Virus record (IMG/VR): IMGVR_UViG_3300037010_000760 | Location: 4,422 to 68,421 of that record | Source of the DNA: a virus | Strand: one strand, 5' to 3' | Length of the DNA: 64,000 nucleotides | Shown here: one piece after another, positions 3,185 to 61,596 of the stretch | How positions within the stretch are numbered: the stretch's first letter is position 1 | Layout of the letters: every line of letters starts with the position of its first letter | Made by a program: the position numbers and the translations under genes | The notes under the pieces: generated by a model | What the model saw: the letters and a program-made list of their open reading frames with translations, nothing else | What the model was told of the DNA's origin: nothing | Databases searched by the model: none

Positions 3185-6100
3185 ATGCCATCTGTTAGCG
3201 ACCTACTTACTCAGTTATTCAGTAATCCAGCATCCTCTGATATGGTTAAACCAAGTATCGGTACATCAACTGAAATTGGGATAACAGTTGATCAAAATAG
3301 CATGCTAAAGCAAGCAGAAGTAGATGCTGCTGCTGCTAGAAAAAAAGAAGAATTAGCTGGTACTTCTTTATCTAGTATGGGTGCCTATGGACTAGGTATT
3401 ACTTCTAGCACCGGATATGGTGCTAGAAGTGCGGGTCAGTTAGATAAGGACATGCTGACGCGCAATCCGGGTGAATTAATGAGTAAGTATGGGGCAGAAG
3501 TAGCTTTACGACTTCTTACTCAAAAAGCATCTGGGGAAGACTCATATAACATTGATAGAGGTATGCCAGTAAGTACCGGAGAAAATATTTCCGACTTTGC
3601 AATAAATACTGGTATCAGTGCTATAAATGCTGTTGGTGGTGCTGGTGCCTGGGCAGGTTCTCTAATAAATGATAAGCTGGGAACTACTTTATCTGGTAGC
3701 CTAGATGCATTTAATAATGCTGCGTCCTCACTTACATCTGATCGCTCTAAATCAAGTAAGCAGATTAATAGTACAACTAATTGGCTAGATACTCGTGATA
3801 ATGAGGCACAGTATCAAAAAGATAAAACCAATGGCGATATACTAGCTGTACTAAAACGTGAGGGCAGAAATGCTATTGGTGCAGTAAATATTGCTAAATC
3901 TGATCCAACTACGCTTTTAGAGGGTACTGCTAGCGGCATTGGTTCTATGTTAGGTTTTGGTTACTTTAATAAAGCTGTTCAGGGTATTGGTGGTACTGGA
4001 AAAGTAGCTACCATGATTCGTGATGCTAGTCTTCCAATCGCAGGTGGCCTAGTTGGTGGAGGCAGCATCTACCAACAAAACGTATCTGATATTATGGCCA
4101 AATCTACTGAAGAGATGGCTCAACAATCCCCGCAATATAATAAATATGTTGCTCAAGGCTTGTCACCTAAAGATGCACAAATACGTGTTGCTGCTGAATC
4201 TGGTGAATATGCTGCTAGCATAGCTGGGCCACTAGATATGATGACCACAATGATGGTTCCCGGTGTTAATGAGATACCACATCATGTTGGTTCAGTAGGA
4301 GAAGCATTTAAGCACACCCTGTTTGAGCCTGTGCAGGAGTTTATTGAAAGTTCTAACGAGCAATTTGCCAGTAATGCCGGAAATCAATATAAGTTTAATC
4401 CTAATCAGGACATAGCCGAAGGAGTGGGTAAAGCTGCTGGTACAGGTGCCTTATACGGTCTAACTTCTGCTGGTGCAACCCACGCTCCGGGTGTTGCTAT
4501 ATTAGGGGCAAAAGCCACTAAAGATGCTGCTGCTACTCTTCTTGGTTCTCTGAAGGATAAAGTTAGTTCTATTAGTGCAGATAACGAAAATAGTAGTCCA
4601 GTATCCAATGCTGCTTTAGCTACTAAAGCAACAACTGCTGCTACACAGACTCCTATTGTAGCTGCTAATATGCAAGCTGCTGCTGCTAATAGTGATCCTG
4701 CTATGCAGGCAAGAGTTGCTAACTTTACTAATATTATGCAATCTGTTAGCACACACGATGCTAATGATTTTGCAGAATCCAGTGATTCAATTAAGGCAGC
4801 ATTGAGCGGTGCTACTACAAAAATAGATGAATTAAATGCATTGAAATCCGTATTCAATAATAAAGATTCTACAGACTCTGATAAAGATTTTGCTGGTACT
4901 AAGTTAATTGATGAACTTAGTTCTATGAATGAGTTTTTGAATACTCAAACTGATGTTATTGATGCCGTTCAAGACGAACCAACAAAGAAATTTGTACGTG
5001 GTATGAAGCAGTTTGCTGCTGATATTCTAAGCAACAAAGAATTTCTTGCTACACGCAATGATATAGCTACTAGATTGGCTCAGAAGCATGAAACCAGTCA
5101 TCCTGAATTGGCTATTGCTGCCGACCCAACATCTCAAGAGGGCAAACAGGCCATTGCAGAGACTTTGGCCATAGCCAGTACATTGCCTACTGAAGTCAAT
5201 GGAAAAGCCGTGGATGCCATTCTGAAGCATTCTGAGGACGGTTCTATAAAGCTGACCCAAGAGCAAAAGGATAATCTGGAAGTCTCCAAAGCCGCTATTA
5301 CAGCCCTTCAGGACAATCTAGTAGACGGTTCCGATCTGATGCGTGTATCCACTGAAGCAAGCAGTGCAGGTTTAGCTGGTGACAAAGGTAAGTCCGCCAT
5401 TCAGCATGCTACTGATATTGTTAGAACTGTATCTGAGGGTAACATTCCTCTTGCCAAAACTTTATTAAAGAGTTTTGAAAGATTTGCTCAACATTATCAA
5501 AATAAAGCAGAAGCTGTTAACCAAGCTACACAAGAAGGTAATGATCAAGACTACAAAGCACATTACACACAATTGGCTCATGGTCAATGGGTTGAAAATA
5601 AAGCTCTATATACTTTTCAGAAGAGCGGTAAAGGAGTAGAATTAGCTACTCAGGTGCATAAAGAAGCTCGTGCTATCGGTAGCATGTATAACGCTATTGC
5701 ATCTATGTATCCCAATATGGGAGTTGAGCCGATTGCTTTAACCAAACCTGATTCTATATTCCTACCGGGTGGTAAGTTTGACCACAAAGCTACTCAGCAT
5801 GGTATTGGTGGTAACGGTTTAGCAGGTATTACTGCTTACCGTAACCGTTTAGTAACCCAACAATCGAAAGGAGCCGAAAATGGCCACGGGCAAAAAGAAG
5901 AAGTGCTAATTGCACCCGGTACTCCATCATTACCTACTAGACCGCCTGTTAGAGCAGACGGTACTGAATCCATCGAAAAGGTGTTCCACACTGATAGGGT
6001 GGAAGCAGCGGCCCAACTTCATGAAAGAAAGTTGGGTGTAGAAAAAGACTTACGCAATGCACTAACTAAGCCCCAACCTAATGAGGTAGGTTCTCTATAT

Positions 6101-36152: not shown

Positions 36153-36236
36153 TGAACCCCTAGAGTGGAGTTGAACCACTATCTTGCCGTTTTGTATTCT
36201 AGCGACATTGCTCTATCCGCTTTGAGCTACTAGGGA
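36153..36236 (-). tRNA. atypical tRNA-like gene (13-nt anticodon loop, TCA instead of CCA)
   Basis: TCCCTAG/CTAGGGG acceptor, GCTC/GAGC D-arm, TGTCG/CGGCA stem with loop CTAGAATACAAAA, T-arm AGTGG-TTCAACT-CCACT. Confidence 0.7.
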
Positions 36237-36311
36237 TAACTGTAAAGTATAGATACTTGTTAGTACCTATAGTTTACAGCAGCATTTTGTAGATGCTACT
36301 GTTGTTGCTGA

Positions 36312-44301: not shown

Positions 44302-44988
44302 ATGCTTACTAAAGATCAAATTGAAAAAGCAGTACCTGCCCATTTGAAAAGCAACATCACACAATCATTAGTTGATTTAGTGAATAACATTTCAACTGAC
44401 CCTGAGTTTGCTGAAAGCGTAAGAAATAACTTCATCTCTTATACCTCTGTTCTGAAGGATGGTAAGTTTAAAACAGAAGACTATGTACATGCCGTAGCAT
44501 ATGTTAGTTACAAGGTGATGGGCTACACAAACCAAGATGCGTATGCCAGAACATTTCCTCAAAGATACGCTGCCTTGATTGCTAAAGGCACTGTTAGTAA
44601 AGACATTGCTGCTTATGTATCAGCATATAACAAGGGTAAACTTGTCAATCTGATTCTTGAACAGACATTAGTCCCCACTTGGGTGTTGAATCAAGACCTG
44701 TACCAGAAGGCCATCAATGTGCAGGCCGACCTAATGGCTAATTCGATGAGTGACAAGGTGAAGTGCGAAGCAGCGAATTCCTTGCTCACCCACCTAACTA
44801 AGCCAAAAGAGGTAGGGCCACTGATTAATTTTGACATGCGAGAAAACTCTGGTATGAATGAAATGCGAGAGTTACTTGCTAAAATGGCACAGAAACAGCA
44901 GGAACTTATTACCGGTGGTGTACCTACCCATATTATCGCATCCCAGTCTATCATTGATGTGAAGGCTAAAGACAATGGCACTCATTAA
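44302..44988 (+). CDS. N4 gp69-like protein (putative terminase small subunit)
   Basis: 'NFISYTSVLKDGKFK..DYVHAVAYVSYK', 'EAANSLLTHL'; upstream of terL. Confidence 0.8.
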   Translation: MLTKDQIEKAVPAHLKSNITQSLVDLVNNISTDPEFAESVRNNFISYTSVLKDGKFKTEDYVHAVAYVSYKVMGYTNQDAYARTFPQRYAALIAKGTVSKDIAAYVSAYNKGKLVNLILEQTLVPTWVLNQDLYQKAINVQADLMANSMSDKVKCEAANSLLTHLTKPKEVGPLINFDMRENSGMNEMRELLAKMAQKQQELITGGVPTHIIASQSIIDVKAKDNGTH

Positions 44989-46567
44989 GCAAAAACTTGA
45001 TGAGTGGTTAGATCAAGTTAACTACTCTGGGTTAAACTCCAATAGCTATATACCTAGTGATTTTGCCCTAACATTTATGAACTTCATTAAGTTAGTAAAT
45101 GGTTCTGTTGGAGAGTCACATAAGACACCTCCAGTACATTTAAAGATGCTGGATAAGATGATAACCCCACAATCTTACATAGCTAATCTATGTTTTCGTG
45201 GTGCTGCTAAGACAACTTTATTCATGGAGTATTTCACCCTATACGTGAGTATGTTTAATCACCTACCTGGGTTTGGTAAAATAGATGGAATGATCTATGT
45301 TTCTGACTCTATGGAGAACGGGGTAAAGACAGCAAGAAAAAATATTGAGTTTCGCTATAACAATAGCGAGTTTTTACAACAGTGGGTTCCAAAAGCATCA
45401 TTCACAGACAACTACTTAGAGTTCCAGAACACAGAGGGCAATGTTCTTGGAGTGAAGATGTTCGGTGCCAAGACTGGTCTTCGTGGTACGAAGATTTTTG
45501 GTAAGCGACCTGTTATTGCTATTCTTGATGACTTGGTTAGCGATGATGATTCCAAGTCTAAGGCAGCAATGATTGCCATTAAAGATACTGTTTACAAGGG
45601 AGTAAACCACGCACTCGACCCCACCCGGAGAAAAGTAGTCTTCAATGGCACCCCATTCAACATGGATGACATTCTGATCGAAGCTGTGGAGTCTGGGGCT
45701 TGGGATGTAAACGTGTGGCCAGTATGCGAAAAATTTCCTTGCACTGAGGAAGAATTTGTCGGGGCATGGGAGGATAGATTCTCCTATCAGTACATCCAAG
45801 AACAGTACGATATGGCCGTCAAGACTGGAAAGTTAGCTTCATTTTTTCAAGAGCTGATGTTGCGAATCACATCGGAAGAAGAAAAATTAGTACAAGATGG
45901 GGATATTCAGTGGTACAGTCGTAAAAATTTACTGGAGCATAAATCCTCCTTTAACTTCTACATCACGACTGATTTTGCTACATCTGCAAAGCAGACAGCA
46001 GACTATTCAGTCATCTCTGTATGGGCATATAACTCAAATGGAGACTGGTTTTGGGTAGATGGTACATGCGAACGACAGACGATGGACAAGTCAATTGATG
46101 ATTTGTTTCGTTTGGTTCAGCAATATCGTCCACAGCAAGTTGGTGTAGAGATAACAGGCCAACAAGGTGCCTTCATATCTTGGATGAAGAATGAAATGAT
46201 GAACCGGAATATCTGGTTTAACTTTGCCTCATCAGATAAGACAGGTCATACCCCTGGCATACGTCCAATCACAGATAAACTGTCTCGATTTAACCTTGTT
46301 GTTCCTTGGTTCAAAGCTGGAAAAATGCATTGGCCCGAGGAGATGAAACATAGTGTTATAGTTGGCACGTTTATGCAGCAAATTCGTTTAGCAACGTCAA
46401 GTGGTTTAAAAGGCAAAGATGACTGCATAGATACAATTTCTATGCTTGGATTCTTATCACCATGGAGACCATCAGATTCAGTACCTGCCACCAAAACTGA
46501 AGTGGATTTATGGGAAGATGAATACCCAGAAGCCAGTCAAAATGCTTTGGCCACTTACATTGTTTGA
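44975..46567 (+). CDS. terL: terminase large subunit
   Basis: 'CFRGAAKTT', 'ILDDL', 'GTPF', nuclease 'TTDFATS', 'DDCIDTISML'. Confidence 0.95.
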   Translation: MALIKQKLDEWLDQVNYSGLNSNSYIPSDFALTFMNFIKLVNGSVGESHKTPPVHLKMLDKMITPQSYIANLCFRGAAKTTLFMEYFTLYVSMFNHLPGFGKIDGMIYVSDSMENGVKTARKNIEFRYNNSEFLQQWVPKASFTDNYLEFQNTEGNVLGVKMFGAKTGLRGTKIFGKRPVIAILDDLVSDDDSKSKAAMIAIKDTVYKGVNHALDPTRRKVVFNGTPFNMDDILIEAVESGAWDVNVWPVCEKFPCTEEEFVGAWEDRFSYQYIQEQYDMAVKTGKLASFFQELMLRITSEEEKLVQDGDIQWYSRKNLLEHKSSFNFYITTDFATSAKQTADYSVISVWAYNSNGDWFWVDGTCERQTMDKSIDDLFRLVQQYRPQQVGVEITGQQGAFISWMKNEMMNRNIWFNFASSDKTGHTPGIRPITDKLSRFNLVVPWFKAGKMHWPEEMKHSVIVGTFMQQIRLATSSGLKGKDDCIDTISMLGFLSPWRPSDSVPATKTEVDLWEDEYPEASQNALATYIV

Positions 46568-46572
46568 AAATC

Positions 46573-47277
46573 ATGCGCCTACGAGATTTGTTTGAAAATT
46601 TGGTTAATGGTGAGTTATCTAACTTAGCAATGGCTACTACTTTAGTTAGTGACACTATTACGCCAGACCATAAAAAAGTAGTCATCTACGCAAATGATGC
46701 TCTTATACGACTCTATTCAAAATTTGTTTTGAAAGAGAATGATATTATTATTATCACCCAGAGTGGTATAACAAATTATCACTTGGATAGTAGATTTTCT
46801 ATTCAAGGGCATGATGGTAAGTTGATAAGAGTACCGTATATACAAGATTTGCCACAAGAACCTTTTACTAATGATGTAGTGAAGATACTTGCTGTGTATG
46901 ATAATAGTGGTTGTGAGCTTGCCCTCAATGATGCTGAGTGCTATAACTCTGTTTACACACCACAAGCAAACGTTTTGCAGGTTCCAAGACCCTATGATGG
47001 GATGGTACTGAGTGTGCTGTATCAGGCAAAACACGAAACCCTATCTATAGAAAATATAGAACAGATAATTGAGTTGCCTGATGTATTGATTAGCGCCTTT
47101 ACAGCCTATATTGCTTATAAGGTACATAGCCATATTAATACGCAGGAATCCTCTGCTAAAGCTCAGGAACACCTGACCTTATATACATCACTAACTGATG
47201 ATGTTTTGCGTGATGACACTGTTGGTGTTAGTATATCTGGCACTAATGTTAGATTTCAAAAACGTGGATGGATTTAA
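46573..47277 (+). CDS. virion adaptor/neck protein (N4 gp67-like)
   Basis: 'GELSNL', 'LIRLYSKF', 'YQAKH', C-terminal 'FQKRGWI'; synteny. Confidence 0.8.
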   Translation: MRLRDLFENLVNGELSNLAMATTLVSDTITPDHKKVVIYANDALIRLYSKFVLKENDIIIITQSGITNYHLDSRFSIQGHDGKLIRVPYIQDLPQEPFTNDVVKILAVYDNSGCELALNDAECYNSVYTPQANVLQVPRPYDGMVLSVLYQAKHETLSIENIEQIIELPDVLISAFTAYIAYKVHSHINTQESSAKAQEHLTLYTSLTDDVLRDDTVGVSISGTNVRFQKRGWI

Positions 47278-47279
47278 TC

Positions 47280-47758
47280 ATGAATATGCGTACAGTATTT
47301 AATTCTTGTGGGAGTCAAGACTCATTAGTAGATAAGCGTATAGGCAATGCCTTTGATACGGTACAACAAGTTGCCCTAAATCTTGGAATGCTGCAATACA
47401 TTGTCGATAACATGGAGGCAATCTATTCTGCTGCTACGCATGAACCTATTTTGAGTCCTGTTCCTATTATCTCATTTATCTCAGCAAGTTATGTAGCAGC
47501 AGATCACTTAGATGATCGGTATAGACATGTTAGATTGAATAATACAATTAGTGTGTCTGTGTTAGATATATATGGACTTATTGAGATAGGCTCATGGTAT
47601 CAATTTAAAAATACCAAAACAACTGCTATTTCCCTCATTGGAGGAACTTTTAACTTACCTTTGGGTACTAAATCAAGTCTTCGTGCTAAAGGTGAGATGC
47701 GTATCCTTAAAGTCTCTGCTACAGAGTGGGATGTTGTAGGTGATATGGAGGCAATATA

Positions 47759-47759
<1 letters not shown>
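47280..47759 (+). CDS. short tail-appendage anchor protein (gp66-like N-terminus)
   Basis: 'LVDKRIGNAFDTVQQVALNL' resembles the virion-attachment N-terminus of N4-like appendage proteins; only about 160 aa. Confidence 0.6.
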
Positions 47760-48895
<1,136 letters not shown>

Positions 48896-48896
48896 T

Positions 48897-51689
48897 ATGC
48901 CAAAATTCTATGTACCATTTGGTGTATTTCTGCTTAGTAATCCTATACGGAATTACTCTAGCAGGGTCATACCTAACTTTATCAGTAAAGTTATACCTAA
49001 TCCTGATATAGTGCTACCTACTCTATCTATTAGTGATGGTGTAATTAGTACAGTAGTCACGTCAATAACACTGTCCATAAGCAATGGTGTTATTACCACT
49101 AGCTCACCTATTGTCACAGATGTTGGGTACATAGCAACATTCATTGATGGGCTTACACCAATAACTAAGTATGCCTTTGTCGATACAGAAGTAAGTGCCA
49201 CAAATACTGTGTCATTCAAACTTGTGGCCACAAGTGCTTCGACATATTCTATATTGCCTAATTCGATTGGCCCGTTCCATATCACTTATGGCACTCCTCC
49301 AGATGGGCTTGTAGTGGCCCCCAGACAGCTTACCCTAGGAGCATCTTTACAGGTGAATGTGTCACTCTCTTCTTTGGTTCCAGTAGCTGCAAATAGTGTT
49401 TTGACCTTTACCCCAGATGTAGGTAATCCAGTCTCTATCACGTTAACTGGTAATGTGCTAACCGAGCTACCTATAGTACCATTACCTAGAATAACTGCAT
49501 TAGGTAATCAATTTATAAGGTCAGGAGTCCCATTTAGACTTAAAGGTGTTAATTGGTATGGTGCAGAAACTAGCTCCTACGTACCTCACGGCATGTGGGT
49601 TAAAAGTTATAAAGCCATCATAAAAGATATTGCTGATATGGGATTTAACTGCATCCGATTACCATTCGGTACAGATGGCTATTCAAATCCAAATTTAATA
49701 TCTCCAGATCAAGGAGCTATGGGTAACTCTGGAAGCCCAAATTCATATATTAATCCTGATTTGGTTGGATTAACTGTATACGAGGTTCTTGATAAGATTA
49801 TCAATGCCTGTACTAGAAATGGTATATATGTTCTGCTAGACAACCATAGAAATACGCTATCTGGGCAAGATGGTACTCCTATACCGACAGGTGGGACAGT
49901 ACAGCATTGGCATGATGTTTGGTCACTGATGGCAACTAGATACGCCAATAATACTACTGTAGTTGGTTCCGATCTATTTAATGAGCCTTATGCCTTACTA
50001 TGGGCAGATTGGAAAGAACTAGCTCAAAATTGTGGAAACTACATTCATACCATTGCGCCAGACTGGCTCATTTTTGTTGAGGGGACGAGTGGTACAGAGA
50101 GTGGATACCCATTCTGGTGGGGTGGTAACTTAGAATATGTCTCCACTAATCCTATAGTTTTAGCCGCACCTAATAAATTGGTATATTCTCCGCATGAATA
50201 TGGGCAATCTGTATATTTACAGAGTTGGTTAGCCTACTCAGGAAACACTCCAGCTAATTGGCCAAATAATCTTAACCAACTTAGAACAAATCACTGGGCA
50301 TTCATATTTGAGCAAAACATTGCTCCAGTATTTGTTGGAGAATTTGGTGGATTTTTTGGTTACGATATGGATGGGAATCTCACTAAACCAAATGGGCCTG
50401 AAGAGATAGCATGGTTAAATAATCTTATTGCACACATGAATGGTGATTTCAATAATGATGGTGTAAGTGAGTTGATCGGCGCTAATAAGGGTGTTTCTTT
50501 TGCTTATTGGTCATTAAATCATGATAGCTCAGATACTGGTGGTCTGTATACGGCTCAACCAAATAACGCTGGTTGGATTAACTGGCAGACAAATAAGTTA
50601 GCTTTGTTGTCTAATCTATTATCTGGTGCTATCGTACCAAAAGGTTGGGGTAATAGAGTTGTATATGGTTATTATCCTACATGGGATAATAATGACTATA
50701 CTTCAGCCACTGTTCAATCTGGACTCACCCACACTATAATGTCTTTTGTTCAACCAGACTTCACATGGTCAGGCTCAACAACATCATGGGAGGGTACGGG
50801 ATTAGATTTTGGAGTATCTAATACTCCAGCAATTATCAAATCAAGACTTACTACCATACAGGCTAGGGGCATAAAAGTGTTCATGTCTATTGGCGGCTCC
50901 TCATACTACAATTGGTCAGGTCTTGCAGCAGAATCTGGGCTTACTTCAGGAACTCCTATCAAAAATGCTTTATTGGCGTTCTATAACTACATGGGCTTTG
51001 ATGGTATAGATATTGATTATGAGATTAATATTGATGATGGTAACAGAACAACTATACTTGCCCAGTATGCTAAATCAATACAAGCATTACGTGAGGTTGT
51101 AGATGCGGCTACTATACCCGGAAAGCTATGCTTAACTACTGTATCAGTTGGTGCTGACTACACTGCTTATACTGTTCCGGCAGGTTCTACTTTACCCCAA
51201 GGAAACAGTTGGTTTGGTGGTAATGCTGGCTCTGAAAGGATAACATTTGCTCTATCTGCTATAGGTGCTTACTCAAGCAAGAAAATAAAAGATTTGGTAG
51301 ATATGATTACGATAATGTCATATGACATTGGGCCTGAAAAGTATGATCCTATAGTGGCATATGAGGATTTCAGGAGTATATGCCTTCCTACTACATCTGT
51401 TAGTATTGGTATACGTATTTCAGGTAGCAGTGCTCCACTATACAAGGACTATATGGTCTTATCCTCAGACTGTGTAAACTCAGCTACCATTGTTGATACA
51501 GATCAGTATAGTAGAATTGTTAATCAACCAAACTCTGTTGAGAGAGTTGCTAAGTATCTAATGGCTAATTCTGGAAACGCTAATGACGGTATTATGTTAT
51601 GGCAGGCCAGAGAAAACGCATCACGTCAGTTGTCTGGTAAGACTACTGCTACAGCAGACTCAACAATAGCTTATATAAACACCCTTTAA
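48897..51689 (+). CDS. GH5 endoglucanase (cellulase) fused to a GH18 chitinase-like domain
   Basis: GH5 at about 49480-50620: 'GVNWYGAET', 'GFNCIRLPF', 'LFNEP', 'WWGGNL', 'YSPHEYG', 'FVGEFGG', 'AYWSLN'. GH18 at about 50650-51686: 'YGYYPTW', 'KVFMSIGG', 'FDGIDIDYE', 'MSYD', 'GIMLW'. Confidence 0.92.
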   Translation: MPKFYVPFGVFLLSNPIRNYSSRVIPNFISKVIPNPDIVLPTLSISDGVISTVVTSITLSISNGVITTSSPIVTDVGYIATFIDGLTPITKYAFVDTEVSATNTVSFKLVATSASTYSILPNSIGPFHITYGTPPDGLVVAPRQLTLGASLQVNVSLSSLVPVAANSVLTFTPDVGNPVSITLTGNVLTELPIVPLPRITALGNQFIRSGVPFRLKGVNWYGAETSSYVPHGMWVKSYKAIIKDIADMGFNCIRLPFGTDGYSNPNLISPDQGAMGNSGSPNSYINPDLVGLTVYEVLDKIINACTRNGIYVLLDNHRNTLSGQDGTPIPTGGTVQHWHDVWSLMATRYANNTTVVGSDLFNEPYALLWADWKELAQNCGNYIHTIAPDWLIFVEGTSGTESGYPFWWGGNLEYVSTNPIVLAAPNKLVYSPHEYGQSVYLQSWLAYSGNTPANWPNNLNQLRTNHWAFIFEQNIAPVFVGEFGGFFGYDMDGNLTKPNGPEEIAWLNNLIAHMNGDFNNDGVSELIGANKGVSFAYWSLNHDSSDTGGLYTAQPNNAGWINWQTNKLALLSNLLSGAIVPKGWGNRVVYGYYPTWDNNDYTSATVQSGLTHTIMSFVQPDFTWSGSTTSWEGTGLDFGVSNTPAIIKSRLTTIQARGIKVFMSIGGSSYYNWSGLAAESGLTSGTPIKNALLAFYNYMGFDGIDIDYEINIDDGNRTTILAQYAKSIQALREVVDAATIPGKLCLTTVSVGADYTAYTVPAGSTLPQGNSWFGGNAGSERITFALSAIGAYSSKKIKDLVDMITIMSYDIGPEKYDPIVAYEDFRSICLPTTSVSIGIRISGSSAPLYKDYMVLSSDCVNSATIVDTDQYSRIVNQPNSVERVAKYLMANSGNANDGIMLWQARENASRQLSGKTTATADSTIAYINTL

Positions 51690-51699
51690 GGCATATACC

Positions 51700-54240
51700 A
51701 TGGCACGAAATGCAAGACTTACTGTTACCTTGAGTGCAGCAAGCACGTCTGTAGTTACTGTTAACTATGCCACTGTGGATGGCACAGCAGTATCTCCATC
51801 TGATTATACCCATGTTAGTGGTACTTTAACTTTTGCTCCGGGGCAGGTTACCAAGTATATTGATGTAGCTATTCGAGATGATCTTCTTGGTTCAGCATCT
51901 GAACAATTCTCGGTGGTGCTCTCTTCCCCAACTGGAGCAACTATCCTTGATAACACAGGCGATGTTGTTCTTGGTTCTGGTGTTGGGGAAATACCCGAGT
52001 ATTACAGAAGATTTAATTGGGTATACGATAAAGTTCACAATACATCTATTGGCTACTTTGGCCCACAAACGGGGCCAAATGCTTTCTCTGTACCTAGACA
52101 TATACCCGAAGTAGACAGTCGAATCATTAATGAGGCACCTGACTATGGTGGAGAGACTGTATCCGAAACTGCATCTTTCTGGGTTGGCCTAGAGGCATGG
52201 AAAGGTTTAGTATCTGGTGACTGGTCAGGCTATAACACATGTGCCAATAATATAGAAAAATTCTATATACCTAATAATGCTAATCAGCCTGTTGGTGCAT
52301 ATACAGCAAGCAGACCTGCTGATTATGTTCCAGAAGGTAACTTAGTTAGCGATTACCCTAGACTAGCTAACTTAGCTGCCCCTATTGGTGCAGACCCGTT
52401 GTATGACGAGCTTCTATCCACTTATAGTACGAAAAACATCTATTTAATGCATTGGATTATCGATGTTGAAGGTGCTTATGGGTTTAAGAATGCTGAATTA
52501 GGTGCTTCCCAACTCTCATTTATGAATACATACCAACGTGGTATGCAGGAATCAAGTTATGAGACTATTCCACAAGGAGCTTGGAATAATTGGCAGAATG
52601 GTGGTCGAGCTGGCTCTGGCGGCTATGACCCATTATTTAATCAAGGTCTTCCAGATTATCCTGCTGCACCGTATGCCTATTCAAAAAAATGGTCATATAC
52701 TAATGCACCAGATGCAGAGATGCGAGCTATTCAGTGGGCATTTCATGCTAAGAAATTTGCTACAGAACAAAACAAACTATCTTCTATTTCCTCCTCCCAA
52801 GAAAAGTATATAAAGATGGGAGACTATGCCCGATATAATTTGTTTGATAAGTATTTCCGCAAAATTGGTGATAATCAAGTTGCAGGTTCTGGTTACAACT
52901 CGTGTCATTATTTGATTAACTGGTACGCTTCTTGGGGTGGTGAAATACCTACAAGTGGTTTAGGAAGTTGGTCATATCGAATTGGCTGTGGAGAGTCTCA
53001 TCAAGGCTACCAGGCACTGATTTCTGCATATGCAATGGCTACTGGAGGTGGTGGTATGACTCCTATGTCTCCCAGTGCCGGGGACATATGGTTGGGTTCG
53101 GTATATCGACAAATTGAAATGATTCGTTGGCTTCAATCACCAGAAGGCCCAATAGCTAGTGGAGTCACAAATTCTTATGCTGGAGATTATAGAATTCCTG
53201 ATGGAAATAGAAATGTTTCCAAATTCTATGGAATGTCCTATGTCTACTCTCCAGTTTGGCACGACCCACCATCAAATAACTGGGTTGGCTTCCAATACTG
53301 GGGACAAGGTAGAACTGCTGATCTATTCTTGGAGGTGAGTGATAAAACTACTCCACTAGCTACAGCCATAAGACCAAATCTTGAGATAATTCTTGATAGA
53401 CTAGTTTCTTGGGCAATTAGAGAAACTAGCATACTCACTGCTAGTGATGTGAAAGTATCTTTTAAAGTGCCTGCTACTATATCGTGGATAGTTGATAACA
53501 CGAAAGCAGAGTGGGCTGCTGAAATAGCTGCTGGTCAAGGTATCCCAACAACAAACAATTTTGAAGGAAGCAAAGAATGGTTACCTACTCTTAACTGGGA
53601 TGGTAAAGGTGACTATGCTGCTTTCTGGAATGCAAGTACAGTTCCAAATCCACATTTACACTGCCAAATGGCCCCTGAAAATGAGGGCGGACATGGACAA
53701 GATGTAGGGGTGGCTGCAAGTATGGCCTATCTACTGATAGCCTATGCGAAAGCTAAAAAGAACATGGGTAAGTTCAATACTACTGTATCTATTGTTGTTG
53801 GTTCAACTACTTATGAACATACAGCAGAAAGAGCGTTTCTATTAGCTAAGGATTTGCTTGATATTATATGGAATCATTTTAGATCACCATCTATAGGAAC
53901 AGATATTGAATCTAGTTATGGTATTGGTTTATCTGAACCACGTAGTGATTACGCTAGAATGACTGACACTGTTTATGTGCCTACAACTCCTGTGGCATAC
54001 ACTGGGGCTATGCCAAATGGTGATGTTATAAATTCATCATCCACATTCATATCCATAAGATCATTTTTGAAAGATGATAAAAAATGGGCAGAGTGCCTTG
54101 CATATGCCAATGCAATGAAGGCTAACCCTAATCAGACTGCCGTACCTCCACCAAATATGCTGTATCATCGCTTTTGGGCGCAAGTCGAATTTGCTATGTC
54201 GTGTGCGGCTCTGCAATATAATTTTTCAGAACTACTTTAA
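51700..54240 (+). CDS. Calx-beta + GH48 processive cellulase
   Basis: GH48 motifs 'EAPDYGGETVSE', 'MHWIIDVE', 'NTYQRGMQES', 'YTNAPDAE', 'KMGDYARYNLFDKYF', 'WLQSPEGPIASGVTNS', 'HDPPSNNW', 'YHRFWAQ'. Confidence 0.93.
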   Translation: MARNARLTVTLSAASTSVVTVNYATVDGTAVSPSDYTHVSGTLTFAPGQVTKYIDVAIRDDLLGSASEQFSVVLSSPTGATILDNTGDVVLGSGVGEIPEYYRRFNWVYDKVHNTSIGYFGPQTGPNAFSVPRHIPEVDSRIINEAPDYGGETVSETASFWVGLEAWKGLVSGDWSGYNTCANNIEKFYIPNNANQPVGAYTASRPADYVPEGNLVSDYPRLANLAAPIGADPLYDELLSTYSTKNIYLMHWIIDVEGAYGFKNAELGASQLSFMNTYQRGMQESSYETIPQGAWNNWQNGGRAGSGGYDPLFNQGLPDYPAAPYAYSKKWSYTNAPDAEMRAIQWAFHAKKFATEQNKLSSISSSQEKYIKMGDYARYNLFDKYFRKIGDNQVAGSGYNSCHYLINWYASWGGEIPTSGLGSWSYRIGCGESHQGYQALISAYAMATGGGGMTPMSPSAGDIWLGSVYRQIEMIRWLQSPEGPIASGVTNSYAGDYRIPDGNRNVSKFYGMSYVYSPVWHDPPSNNWVGFQYWGQGRTADLFLEVSDKTTPLATAIRPNLEIILDRLVSWAIRETSILTASDVKVSFKVPATISWIVDNTKAEWAAEIAAGQGIPTTNNFEGSKEWLPTLNWDGKGDYAAFWNASTVPNPHLHCQMAPENEGGHGQDVGVAASMAYLLIAYAKAKKNMGKFNTTVSIVVGSTTYEHTAERAFLLAKDLLDIIWNHFRSPSIGTDIESSYGIGLSEPRSDYARMTDTVYVPTTPVAYTGAMPNGDVINSSSTFISIRSFLKDDKKWAECLAYANAMKANPNQTAVPPPNMLYHRFWAQVEFAMSCAALQYNFSELL

Positions 54241-57645: not shown

Positions 57646-57849
57646 ATGAAACTCAAAGATGACTGGCGTATGGTTCTAAGTAAAGCATGGAGCGTGCGTT
57701 TTATAGCTCTAGCTGGCTTGTTCAGTGGTGCAGAAACTGCACTTCCCTCTCTATCTGATAGTCTGCCACCCCATACCTTTGCTGCATTAACAGCCATTGC
57801 TACGGCTGGGGCTTTCATTTCACGGCTAATCGTACAAAAGGATATGTAA
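57646..57849 (+). CDS. holin
   Basis: 'DDWR....KAWSVR', two TM helices, 'RLIVQ'; overlaps the endolysin start. Confidence 0.75.
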   Translation: MKLKDDWRMVLSKAWSVRFIALAGLFSGAETALPSLSDSLPPHTFAALTAIATAGAFISRLIVQKDM

Positions 57850-58331
57850 TGGCTTCTGATGCACAAAAGAGAAAAGCTGCTGCACTTGCCATTGCTACAG
57901 CCTTGGCTATTCCAATGGAAGGTATACGCCAAATTGCTTACTATGACCCAGCCGGAATCCTCACTGTATGTGATGGGTCAACAACTGGCGTAGAAAAAGG
58001 AAAAATATATTCTCTAGCTGAGTGTCGGCAGCGACTTAATGACGACATGCTGGCTGCAATAAACACTGTTGACCGTTGTGTACCCGGCCTGCCGCCTCAC
58101 ATGCTAGCTGCATGGGGTGATGCTGTGTATAACCTTGGCCCAGCTATCGTCTGCAATAAGACTCGTAGCACTGCTGCCCGGTTACTAACATCTGGTCAAC
58201 GCCTTGCTGCATGTGACCAACTTCCACGCTGGGACAAGGCTCGTATCGCCGGAGTACAAATCTCACTACCTGGGTTAACAAAGCGTCGCTTAAAAGAACA
58301 GTCTCTTTGTAAAACTGGAGAATTAACATGA
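57849..58331 (+). CDS. SAR endolysin, GH24 lysozyme
   Basis: Basic plus Ala-rich SAR segment; E-x8-D-x5-T triad 'EGIRQIAYYDPAGILT'; 'LPGLTKRR'. Confidence 0.9.
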   Translation: MASDAQKRKAAALAIATALAIPMEGIRQIAYYDPAGILTVCDGSTTGVEKGKIYSLAECRQRLNDDMLAAINTVDRCVPGLPPHMLAAWGDAVYNLGPAIVCNKTRSTAARLLTSGQRLAACDQLPRWDKARIAGVQISLPGLTKRRLKEQSLCKTGELT

Positions 58332-59394: not shown

Positions 59395-61596
59395 ATGACT
59401 ACGGCTCAGTTTACTAATCCACATATCCAAGTTAAATTAACCTCTTGGAAAAATGAACCAACTATTCAGATATTGAAGGGTGATCTTGAGCAGGCAAAAC
59501 CTGCACACGATTCTCAAATGTCTAATGTGGAACGTTGGAATGATCTGAGTGCCATTCGTGGTAAGGCAAAACCTCCACAAGTAAAAGGACGATCTAGTGT
59601 TCAACCTAAGTTAATTCGTCGTCAGGCAGAGTGGAGATATTCTGCTTTAACTGAGCCATTTTTAGGTAGTAGTAAGTTATTCAAAGTTAGTCCTGTTACT
59701 TTTGAAGATACTAAGGGTGCTGACCAGAATGAGCTAGTTTTGAACTGGCAATTTAGAACAAAGTTGAATAAGGTAAAATTCATTGATGAGTACATTCGTG
59801 GTACTGTTGATGAGGGTAGTTGTATAGTTCGTATTGGTTGGGAAAGACGAACAATTCTTATTAATAAAGTTGTTCCAGTTTTTACCTATTATCAAATAGT
59901 CGATCAAGCTGCTTTATCAGAGTTTCAACAAGCGCTGGGTATGCAGTCAGAAGATAAACGATCTTTTGATGAGTCTGCTCCTCCAGAGATTAAGGCTGCT
60001 GTTGAATACTATCTTGAAAATGGTGTTGCAACTACTGCTCAAATAACTGGTGAAGAAGTTATTAAAGAGGAGAAGATTCTTGAAAACAAACCACTTGTTG
60101 AAGTTAAAAACCTTAACAACATCTTCATTGATCCATCTTGCGGTGGCGACTTAAATAAGGCACTTTTTGTTATTGAGTCTTTTGAGACCAATAAAGCTGA
60201 TTTGTTAAAGGAACCAAAAAAATATAATAAGAATCAGTTGGATTTAGTCGATTGGCAAGGAAATACTCCTTTATCGCAGCCTGACCATGAAACCTCTACT
60301 CCAGAATCATTCCAATTTTCCGATGCTAGTCGTAAAAAGGTAGTTGCTTATGAGTATTGGGGTTACTATGATATTAACAACGATGGTTCTTTGGCGCCTA
60401 TCGTTTGTACTTGGATTGGTAGCACAGTTATCCGAATGGAGATAAGCCCATTCGCTGACGAGAAGGTTCCTTATGTTTTGGTTCCTTACTCTCCAGTTAG
60501 GGGTTCTTTATATGGTGAGCCGGATGCGGAATTATTGGAAGATAATCAGAAGATTTTAGGAGCTGTATCACGAGGAATGATCGACCTATTAGGACGTTCT
60601 GCCAATGGTCAACAGGGCTTTGCCAAGGGCATGCTAGACCCCCTAAATCGACGTAGATATGAGAATGGTCAGGACTACGAATTCAACCCCAATGTGCAGC
60701 CACAGAACGGTCTGATTGAGCATAGATACCCTGAGCTACCTACATCTGCCCTGAGCATGCTCTCGTTGCAGAATCAGGAAGCAGAAGCTCTGACAGGAGT
60801 TAAATCCTTTGTTGGGGGTATCTCTGGTGAATCCTATGGTAAGGTAGCTACAGGTATTCGTGGTGCTCTAGATGCAGCATCTAAGCGCGAGATGGCTATT
60901 CTTCGTAGATTGGCTCAAGGTATGCAGGAAATAGGCAATAAAGTTATTGCCATGAATGCAGAGTTTTTATCTGAGCAAGAAGTTGTACGTATTACTAATG
61001 AAGAGTTTGTAAAGGTAAATCGTGAGGACTTAAAAGGTAATTTTGATTTAGAAGTAGACATTTCTACCGCTGAAGTTGATAATGCCAAATCTGAAGATTT
61101 GTCTTTTATGCTTCAAACTCTTGGCAATAAAATGGATCAATCAATTACAATGATGCTACTTGCTGAGATTGCCAAGCTAAAACGTATGCCTATGTTGGCA
61201 CATAAATTATCTACTTATAAGCCTCCTGAGCCATCGCCAGAAGAAGTTGAGATGCAAAAACTTACTCTGGAAAAAGCACGTAAAGAAATTGCACTACTTG
61301 ATTCAGAGATTGCTTTTAATATGGCAAAAGCTCAAGAGGCTAGTGCAAACAAAGATATGAAGAACTTGAATTATGTTGAGCAAGAGACTGGCACTAAGCA
61401 TGAACGTGACTTGCAGAAGCAACGTGCTCAGTCTCAGGGAAACCAGAATCTACAAGTAACCAAAGCACTGACCTCCCCCGTTAAAGAGGGAGAAAAAGCT
61501 CCTAATTTAGAAACTGCAATTGGATTCAATCGAGTTAGTGATAGACTTAGCAATGCTGGTACGACTGTCCCAACATTAAGTGGTATGCCCGCTTAA
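59395..61596 (+). CDS. portal protein (N4 gp59-like)
   Basis: 'WKNEPT', '[26 protein letters not shown]', 'EYWGYYD'. Confidence 0.93.

Follow-up and report, generated by a model that had tools for sequence, protein, structure and literature searches.

What does a bacteriophage gain from an enzyme of glycoside hydrolase family 48 (GH48), a family used as a marker of truly cellulolytic bacteria (PMC7565076)? The question is raised by a gene in the IMG/VR virus record IMGVR_UViG_3300037010_000760 (68,421 bases, estimated to be 93% complete), of which we analyzed positions 4,422 to 68,421, a stretch of 64,000 nucleotides hereafter called the window. A preliminary description, made from the sequence alone, had proposed that this gene encodes a full-length GH48 cellobiohydrolase carried by a phage. 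Our analysis indicates that the protein belongs to a phage-specific clade of GH48, is encoded by an N4-like phage, within its variable block for host recognition and next to a partner of glycoside hydrolase family 5 (GH5), and probably acts on cellulose secreted by the host. The architecture, residues, fold, gene position and GH5 pairing come from our own analysis, and the dependence on cellulose and the GH5 activity from the literature on Erwinia phage S6. The gene and the pair are already known from S6 and are here extended to an uncultured N4-like lineage. What is added is the placement of phage-type GH48 proteins on one side of a strongly supported branch, the presence of the GH5 gene upstream in 16 of 16 related loci, and a strand-deficient N-terminal head accompanied by a look-alike peptide in the GH5 protein.

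The identity of the domain is clear. It matches the Pfam profile PF02011 at 586.7 bits (cut-off 25) in two stretches, covering profile positions 1-461 and 452-616 of 619, a match far beyond chance that bears out the proposed full-length domain. In addition, phmmer matched 14 distinct GH48 sequences of solved structure (best 6d5d, E 1.8e-124), and an AlphaFold2 model built with 96 homologues reached a mean predicted local distance difference test (pLDDT) score of 93.8, falling below 50 only at the inter-domain linker (residues 94-96) and in an insertion (residues 730-737). Foldseek comparison of this model gave template modelling (TM) scores of 0.93-0.95, normalized by the target, and root mean square deviations of 2.2-3.7 Å against 13 GH48 entries (4l0g, 6d5d, 1g9j, 4jjj and others); the top structures were those of Caldicellulosiruptor, Clostridium, Thermobifida and Hahella, with the Bacillus enzymes lower (TM 0.84-0.85). 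Structure prediction, which had been put forward as a check on the proposal, thus returned the GH48 helical-barrel fold of the solved enzymes.

The boundaries given in the preliminary description (51997-54240) are exactly those of the GH48 domain. Position 51997 is the start of this domain (codon 100) but not of the gene, whose open reading frame (ORF) begins at 51700. The motif 'EAPDYG', named there as the first of the GH48 motifs, lies at 52132 (residue 145); 'YHRFWAQ' corresponds to residues 822-828. The Calx-beta domain at residues 5-79 was absent from that description. The BFVD fold search gave no GH48-fold match, only Calx-beta parts, and PHROGs holds no family for the GH48 part; these blanks are library gaps and not signs of novelty. 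The window protein has no signal peptide, and no carbohydrate-binding module (CBM) or dockerin was detected in it by Pfam.

Are the catalytic and substrate-contact residues those of a working enzyme? The printed alignment to the cellulase Cel48F (chain 1f9d_A) spans residues 230-549, and residues outside this range were placed by offset from the aligned ranges; the chain numbering equals that of the literature, since W154 falls on the tryptophan of 'MHW'. The catalytic base D230 of Cel48F corresponds to D338, which also aligns with the Asn of 4jjj, a T. fusca entry titled as a D224N mutant. By offset, the catalytic acid E55 corresponds to E156 and E44 to E145, and titles in the PDB include E44Q and D224N mutants at the positions equivalent to E145 and D338. 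The Glu of 'TVSE' (E156) and the Asp of 'YTNAPDAE' (D338) had been proposed as general acid and base, an assignment that stands: together with the partner E145 they are near-invariant over 149 aligned rows, with D338 kept in 123, E145 in 122 and E156 in 120 of the 123 phage-type rows, and all three in each of the 26 cellular rows.

The remaining equivalences within the alignment (Cel48F=window) are W154=W252, Q181=Q279, T226=T334, N227=N335, K274=K384, W298=W408, Y299=Y409, W310=W424, W312=Y426, Y323=Y437, Y403=W520, W411=W528 and W417=W534. H36=H134, W611=W826 and the positions of E542 and Q543 rest on offset, with E542=E746 less sure, and T110 was not mapped, Cel48F being absent from the five alignments printed for the N-terminal piece. 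The six stacking residues of Cel48F given in PMC10317168 (W154, Y299, W310, residue 403, W411 and W417) are all aromatic in the window protein, and five are identical, the sixth being the exchange of Y403 for W520; W528 and W534 are present in all 123 phage-type rows. Among the 15 hydrogen-bonding residues listed in a simulation study (PMC4055089), 11 are identical (Q279, T334, N335, D338, K384 and W408, and by offset H134, E145, E156, E746 and W826); for the other four, W520 is an aromatic-for-aromatic exchange, N314 and P747 differ, and T110 is the unmapped residue. Thus the tunnel aromatics and catalytic residues, whose loss had been named as grounds for rejecting the proposal, are in place. 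From these residues and the model, we predict that the window protein is a catalytically competent GH48 beta-1,4-glucanase, as one part of the reading that we regard as probable.

How unusual is such a gene in a phage? The rarity implied by the preliminary description does not hold, and one of its own grounds for rejection, viral GH48 entries already present in CAZy, applies: the GH48 family of CAZy is stated to cover "enzymes from viruses" in a 2024 analysis (PMC11238990), S6 gp094 was published in 2022, and 13 named Erwinia phages carry the gene. S6 gp094 was described as a protein with Calx-beta and GH48 domains and with predicted catalytic residues Glu155 and Asp331; degradation of carboxymethylcellulose was demonstrated for gp095, the GH5 protein of the same phage; and S6 uses cellulose as its first receptor, its infection being blocked by Congo red (PMC9544554). 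Across its full length (100%), the window protein shares 56% identity with gp094. The two share the domain order, the predicted catalytic Glu and Asp, and the position of the gene, which follows the GH5 gene and lies between the terminase and adaptor genes and the portal gene. Unlike the window protein, gp094 of S6 (Schitoviridae, Waedenswilvirus) has 809 amino acids; insertions specific to the window's subclade account for its 846 amino acids, against roughly 805 in most relatives. The portals of the two phages are 57% identical, and their nucleotide sequences match only at the terminase and capsid genes.

A tblastn search of 50,697 phage records found full-length copies at 49-56% identity in 17 GenBank/RefSeq records, which represent the 13 named Erwinia phages; the carriers are both N4-like phages (S6, Pastis, Kuerle, phiEaP8 and the Fifi series, among others) and phages of 147 kb (Hena1 and pEp_SNUABM_01). 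The annotation is glycoside hydrolase for several copies and family 48 for one. IMG/VR contributed 15 loci, and in a collection of 5.8 billion proteins 97 of the best 120 clusters carry both Pfam domains, many on contigs of 60-77 kb. When a library of 1.84 billion representatives was searched with the whole protein, six of the 150 matches listed were GH48 proteins (P0052, P0089, P0094, P0181, P0202 and P0231). Among the best 80 of 578 confirmed loci in GTDB species genomes there was one phage-type copy (Azorhizophilus paspali, 53% identity), followed in rank by 79 cellulases of actinobacteria, which are 35-38% identical. Two proteins named from Rhodoblastus acidophilus (P0056) and Novosphingobium sp. 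PhB55 (P0011) have GH48 domains identical to those of the IMG/VR provirus records L089 and L090 (62.6 and 55.5 kb, respectively), so the cassette also occurs in integrated phages of Alphaproteobacteria.

Do the phage proteins form a lineage of their own? We built an unrooted tree (LG+G4 model; support from the Shimodaira-Hasegawa-like approximate likelihood ratio test) of 150 rows and 708 columns. The rows comprised 121 phage-type proteins, 14 loci chosen from the 79 of actinobacteria, with no genus represented more than four times, 14 multi-domain or CBM2-bearing proteins and one protein of the viral locus L097; the cellular side was sampled without named Bacillota, Chloroflexota or Hahella-type sequences. 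A branch of length 0.51 and support 100 has all 121 phage-type rows on the same side, and the long phage-type row P0081 is drawn beside the cellular clade. The closest neighbours of the window protein in the tree are the metagenomic proteins P0002 (81% identical), P0003 and P0004. The phylogeny that had been suggested for finding the donor lineage therefore separates a phage-type clade but, with an unrooted tree and a narrow cellular sample, names no donor. The phage clade is deep, which speaks for GH48 having become associated with phages once, long ago, and not through repeated recent captures. Relative to cellular GH48 enzymes (Cel48F, CelS, T. fusca Cel48A and the CelA module of Caldicellulosiruptor), the window protein has the same fold, catalytic residues and stacking aromatics at 33-36% identity, but it differs in its strand-deficient Calx-beta head, in having no signal peptide, CBM or dockerin, in residues equivalent to W312 (Phe or Tyr) and Y403 (Trp), and in insertions shared across the phage clade (125-130, 317-324, 418-420, 551-560, 608-628 and 635-643).

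It is barely conceivable that the gene is cellular, either a bacterial cellulase mis-assembled into a viral bin or a metabolic gene for plant cellulose. A few relatives do lie on long bacterial contigs (P0011, 478 kb; P0026, 813 kb; P0056, 172 kb), and among the 15 viral loci there is one, L097, whose protein falls with the cellular enzymes in the tree; this protein has no Calx-beta head and a GH5 gene precedes its own, on an IMG/VR contig of 255,474 bases that is classed as viral and may come from a phage of very large size or from a bacterium. The window gene, on the other hand, lies on one 68-kb record among structural genes of a phage, packed 10 bases after the preceding gene and 9 bases before the following one, and composition is even across the region. 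The branch described above splits its clade from cellular GH48, two of the bacterial-contig copies are identical in their GH48 domain to the provirus records already mentioned, and the CBM2 that the actinobacterial relatives P0116 and P0117 carry is missing from it.

That the record is a phage genome is evident from its other genes. The 3937 amino acid ORF at 3158-14971 matches phrog_2206, a virion RNA polymerase, at 2061 bits, and the portal is of the SU10 type (PF23899 SU10_portal, E 1.2e-147) and 57-66% identical to those of N4-like phages. With a giant virion RNA polymerase and an N4/SU10-type portal and adaptor on a virus record of 68,421 bases, this is an N4-like phage of the Schitoviridae, and the proposal that a phage carries the GH48 gene is upheld.

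Which enzyme, then, works alongside GH48? The gene immediately upstream ends at 51689 and encodes a 930 amino acid protein whose GH5 part is the counterpart of S6 gp095. A GH5 gene stands upstream of GH48 in all 16 related loci, which comprise N4-like phages, 147-kb phages and provirus records of 55-62 kb, and all 30 phage records that contain the Calx-beta head of the window protein, among the 50,697 searched, also hold a GH5 homologue. Natural fusions occur as well among metagenomic relatives: P0067 joins GH5, GH48 and an immunoglobulin-like domain without Calx-beta, and P0202 joins GH48, GH5 and Calx-beta. A further fusion, P0094, combines Calx-beta and GH48 with a GDSL/SGNH esterase, which suggests acetylated cellulose as a substrate in some hosts. 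In the partner, a GH18 domain lies behind the GH5 domain (window 50650-51689). It has no counterpart in the 16 related GH5 genes, whose matches stop at residues 568-605 of the window protein, and appears to be an add-on particular to this phage lineage.

The GH18 domain makes it necessary to ask whether the GH48 domain acts on or binds another polymer, such as a chitin-like polymer, a mixed beta-glucan or chemically modified cellulose, and is not a classical cellobiohydrolase. GH48 does include chitinases (EC 3.2.1.14; PMC11238990), the esterase of P0094 hints at substituted substrates, and substrate-contact positions vary in the phage clade, where the position of N227 holds C, N, V or S and that of W312 holds F or Y. 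We nevertheless hold this alternative to be highly unlikely: the window protein has the same catalytic triad as the cellulase Cel48F and differs from it in only one of six stacking residues, it is constantly paired with a GH5 cellulase, whose counterpart in S6 cleaves carboxymethylcellulose (PMC9544554), and the GH18 domain is absent from all 16 related loci.

An endo/exo pair acting on cellulose made by the host is proposed because of the S6 precedent, the constant GH5 pairing and the natural fusions. The GH5 enzyme would cut cellulose chains internally and the GH48 enzyme, presumed active, would thread the chain ends and shorten the chains processively; the virion could then bind and penetrate the cellulose layer that would serve as its first receptor. 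We infer that the host of the window phage makes cellulose. The position of the gene is consistent with a role in host recognition: the GH48 gene lies between those of the neck adaptor and the portal, the interval in which receptor-binding proteins are encoded in N4-like phages (PMC9569702), and the order terminase, adaptor, GH5, GH48, portal is common to the window and S6. In the same variable block, the branched receptor-binding proteins of N4-like phages (gp63.1 and gp66 of G7C; gp66 and gp67 of the Pectobacterium phage Possum) likewise include an enzyme whose target is a polysaccharide of the host surface and whose attachment to the virion is proposed to run through a separate connector (PMC9569702). 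Those enzymes, however, modify O-antigen and are SGNH deacetylases carried by trimeric fibres, whereas the window encodes two glycoside hydrolases that would depolymerize an exopolysaccharide.

Must the enzymes be part of the virion at all? GH48 and GH5 could instead be soluble late enzymes, freed at lysis, that loosen the cellulose matrix so that progeny escape and spread. The GH48 fold is a monomeric helical barrel, unlike the trimeric spikes typical of tail enzymes; release by lysis requires no signal peptide; an endolysin gene lies about 3.6 kb downstream; and we found no virion data for either protein. We consider this explanation rather unlikely, given that the GH48 gene occupies the receptor-binding block of N4-like phages (PMC9569702), that its N-terminal head also occurs in proteins annotated as tail proteins in other phages and is kept in the phage-type proteins (97 of the best 120 clusters) yet is no known sugar-binding module, and that S6 requires cellulose for infection and not merely for spread (PMC9544554).

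If the GH48 protein does belong to a host-recognition apparatus, what would hold it there? Its N-terminus carries a Calx-beta domain (PF03160, residues 5-79, E 3.3e-16; score 59.8 bits, cut-off 27) that starts at profile position 24 and ends at position 99 of 119. The modelled head has six strands and matches CBD1 of NCX1 and the Calx-beta domain of integrin beta4 (TM 0.65-0.71, target-normalized). It is not a complete beta-sandwich, as it begins about four residues before the second strand; its homologues do the same, and the N-terminus of the window protein aligns with theirs from their first residues. A set of 2817 Calx-like repeats that are complete, taken from 140 large proteins, shows a strand 13-20 residues upstream of the point at which the window protein starts, with a consensus of the type 'P-x-S-I-x-S/D-V-x-V-x-E'; these repeats came from giant multi-repeat proteins matched via the Calx-beta head in the 1.84-billion representative library.

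The same head, at 44-47% identity, opens tail proteins other than GH48 in 13 of the 30 head-bearing phage records. Tail proteins of this kind in podophages such as PEp14, Pavtok, Parlo and LASTA share with the window the profile start and a GH5 cellulase homologue nearby; they differ in a C-terminal part that is not GH48, and in the 962 amino acid protein of PEp14 Pfam detects Calx-beta only. The head is thus a candidate connector to a tail module rather than a sugar binder. Two loci encode an extra protein between the GH5 and GH48 genes (L090:5841-7988, 716 amino acids; L093:3639-5600, 654 amino acids) that also opens with a Calx-beta head deficient in the same way, its profile match beginning at position 28 in the former and 24 in the latter, so that one cassette can hold two Calx-headed proteins.

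Could the missing strand be supplied from elsewhere? The N-terminal part of the GH5 protein contains two peptides, 'LSISDGVI' and 'LSISNGVI', that resemble the consensus of strand A in complete Calx repeats. The corresponding pattern has only these two matches in the 80 stop-to-stop frames of at least 100 amino acids in the window, and it occurs one to four times per protein in 12 of the 16 GH5 partners; where it is repeated, the copies are spaced 15 residues apart in other loci and 16 in the window. The S6 partner has a single such peptide and no GH18 domain, and the GH5 protein of PEp14, unlike that of the window, has no match to the pattern. Since the pattern was written after inspection of the sequences, the shuffle counts (0-9 of 500 per protein) show conservation only. 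The ratios of peptide copies to Calx-headed proteins (2/2 in L090, 1/1 in L092 and L096, 1/2 in L093 and 4/1 in L004) do not match throughout, and we therefore make no claim of stoichiometry. Complex prediction with residues 1-580 of the GH5 protein and 1-100 of the GH48 protein, run without controls, gave scores of 0.10 and 0.26 against a mark of 0.32 and counts neither way. Judging from sequence resemblance, the GH5 peptide may supply the strand that the head lacks, and we infer that the GH48 protein could be fixed to the virion via this incomplete head, perhaps onto the GH5 protein.

A bolder extension of this arrangement, which we hold to be decidedly unlikely, is that the GH5 peptide completes the head and tethers GH48 to the tail, and that a threaded GH48 would act as a one-way ratchet, each hydrolytic step drawing the virion along the host polymer to the outer-membrane pore from which the chain emerges. 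In bacterial cellulose the reducing end leaves the synthase and the cell first, with polymerization at the non-reducing end (PMC8892547), and GH48 includes cellobiohydrolases that act from the reducing end (PMC11238990); a tethered GH48 would therefore move toward the cell. This polarity fits the movement along a cellulose chain toward the cell that the preliminary description had inferred, and is the one point that bears on it. Together, the GH5 pairing, the strand-deficient head and the chain polarity suggest how a phage could use an exopolysaccharide of its host as a route leading to the cell; if the ratchet were real, a polymer of the matrix would guide the virion to the cell surface like a rail.

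Several points weigh against a cellulose-directed enzyme of the host-recognition block, the reading that we favor. Nothing was found that places the GH48 protein in the virion, and gp094 itself is termed 'predicted' in the commentary on S6 (PMC9544554). The position of W312 is Phe or Tyr in 120 of the 123 phage-type rows (Tyr in the window) and that of Y403 is Trp in 117, both unlike all 26 cellular rows, and the clade-wide insertions amount to about 60 extra residues, with more in the window's subclade, which could alter the tunnel. The GH18 domain of the partner means that a polymer other than cellulose may be involved. Finally, the portal is at most 66% identical to that of any cultured phage, and in a megablast search with 20 kb of sequence no phage record covered more than 7% of the query. 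Even with these points, we consider it probable that the pair acts on cellulose secreted by the host.

What follows for the wider use of GH48 sequences? The earlier caution that phage copies could confound GH48 marker-gene surveys is fair, as the text of the marker-primer paper (PMC7565076) does not mention phage or virus; profile-based counts of GH48 in metagenomes, used as a proxy for cellulolytic bacteria, will include phage-type GH48. This type forms a large, old and well-separated clade and is not a curiosity of one Erwinia phage, and the conserved catalytic set makes S6 gp094 or the window protein an easy and informative target for assays.

Table 1. Features of the window discussed in the text (positions in the window; residues in the encoded protein).
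Feature	Position	Strand	Basis or remark
GH48 gene	51700..54240	+	846 amino acids, ATG start; Calx-beta head and GH48 catalytic domain; counterpart of S6 gp094
N-terminal Calx-beta domain	51700..51984	+	Residues 1-95, first strand missing; Pfam PF03160, model, Foldseek
GH48 catalytic domain	51997..54237	+	Residues 100-846; PF02011 E 7.5e-176; AlphaFold2 model; structural matches
Motif 'EAPDYGGETVSE'	52132..52167	+	E145 (Cel48F E44) and E156 (Cel48F E55, catalytic acid); offset mapping
D338 codon, catalytic base (Cel48F D230)	52711..52713	+	Printed alignments to 1f9d_A and 4jjj
Partner gene	48897..51689	+	930 amino acids; GH5 at residues 216-543 (PF00150 E 7.2e-45); C-terminal GH18 at residues 589-850 (PF00704 E 6.4e-15)
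Peptides 'LSISDGVI' and 'LSISNGVI'	49023..49094 (starts 49023 and 49071)	+	Two 8-residue peptides, N-terminal part of the GH5 protein
Terminase gene	44975-46567		With the portal gene, brackets the block holding both cellulase genes
Neck adaptor	46564-47277	+	SU10_adaptor E 9.4e-06, 26.6 bits, just below the cut-off of 27; phrog_2125 virion structural protein 5e-71
163 amino acid protein	47268-47759	+	First ~60 residues kept in other N4-like loci (tblastn)
378 amino acid protein	47759-48895	+	Unmatched in related loci (tblastn)
Endolysin gene	57849-58331		phrog_7 9.2e-38; ~3.6 kb downstream of the GH48 gene
Portal gene	59395..61596	+	PF23899 SU10_portal

The remaining genes of the block add some minor observations. 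In the 163 amino acid protein encoded after the neck adaptor, the residues kept in other loci are 42-46% identical in L092, L094-L096 and L098, a pattern as would be expected of a virion-anchoring N-terminus with a swappable C-terminus. An assignment of the host from terminase, capsid and portal matches was attempted and gave an ambiguous result, with phages of Pseudomonas, Erwinia, Achromobacter, Sinorhizobium and Klebsiella nearest. Elsewhere in the window, ARAGORN predicted a tRNA-like gene at 36154-36237 on the minus strand with a four-base anticodon call (agaa), near genes for tRNA-Met, tRNA-Arg and tRNA-Leu.

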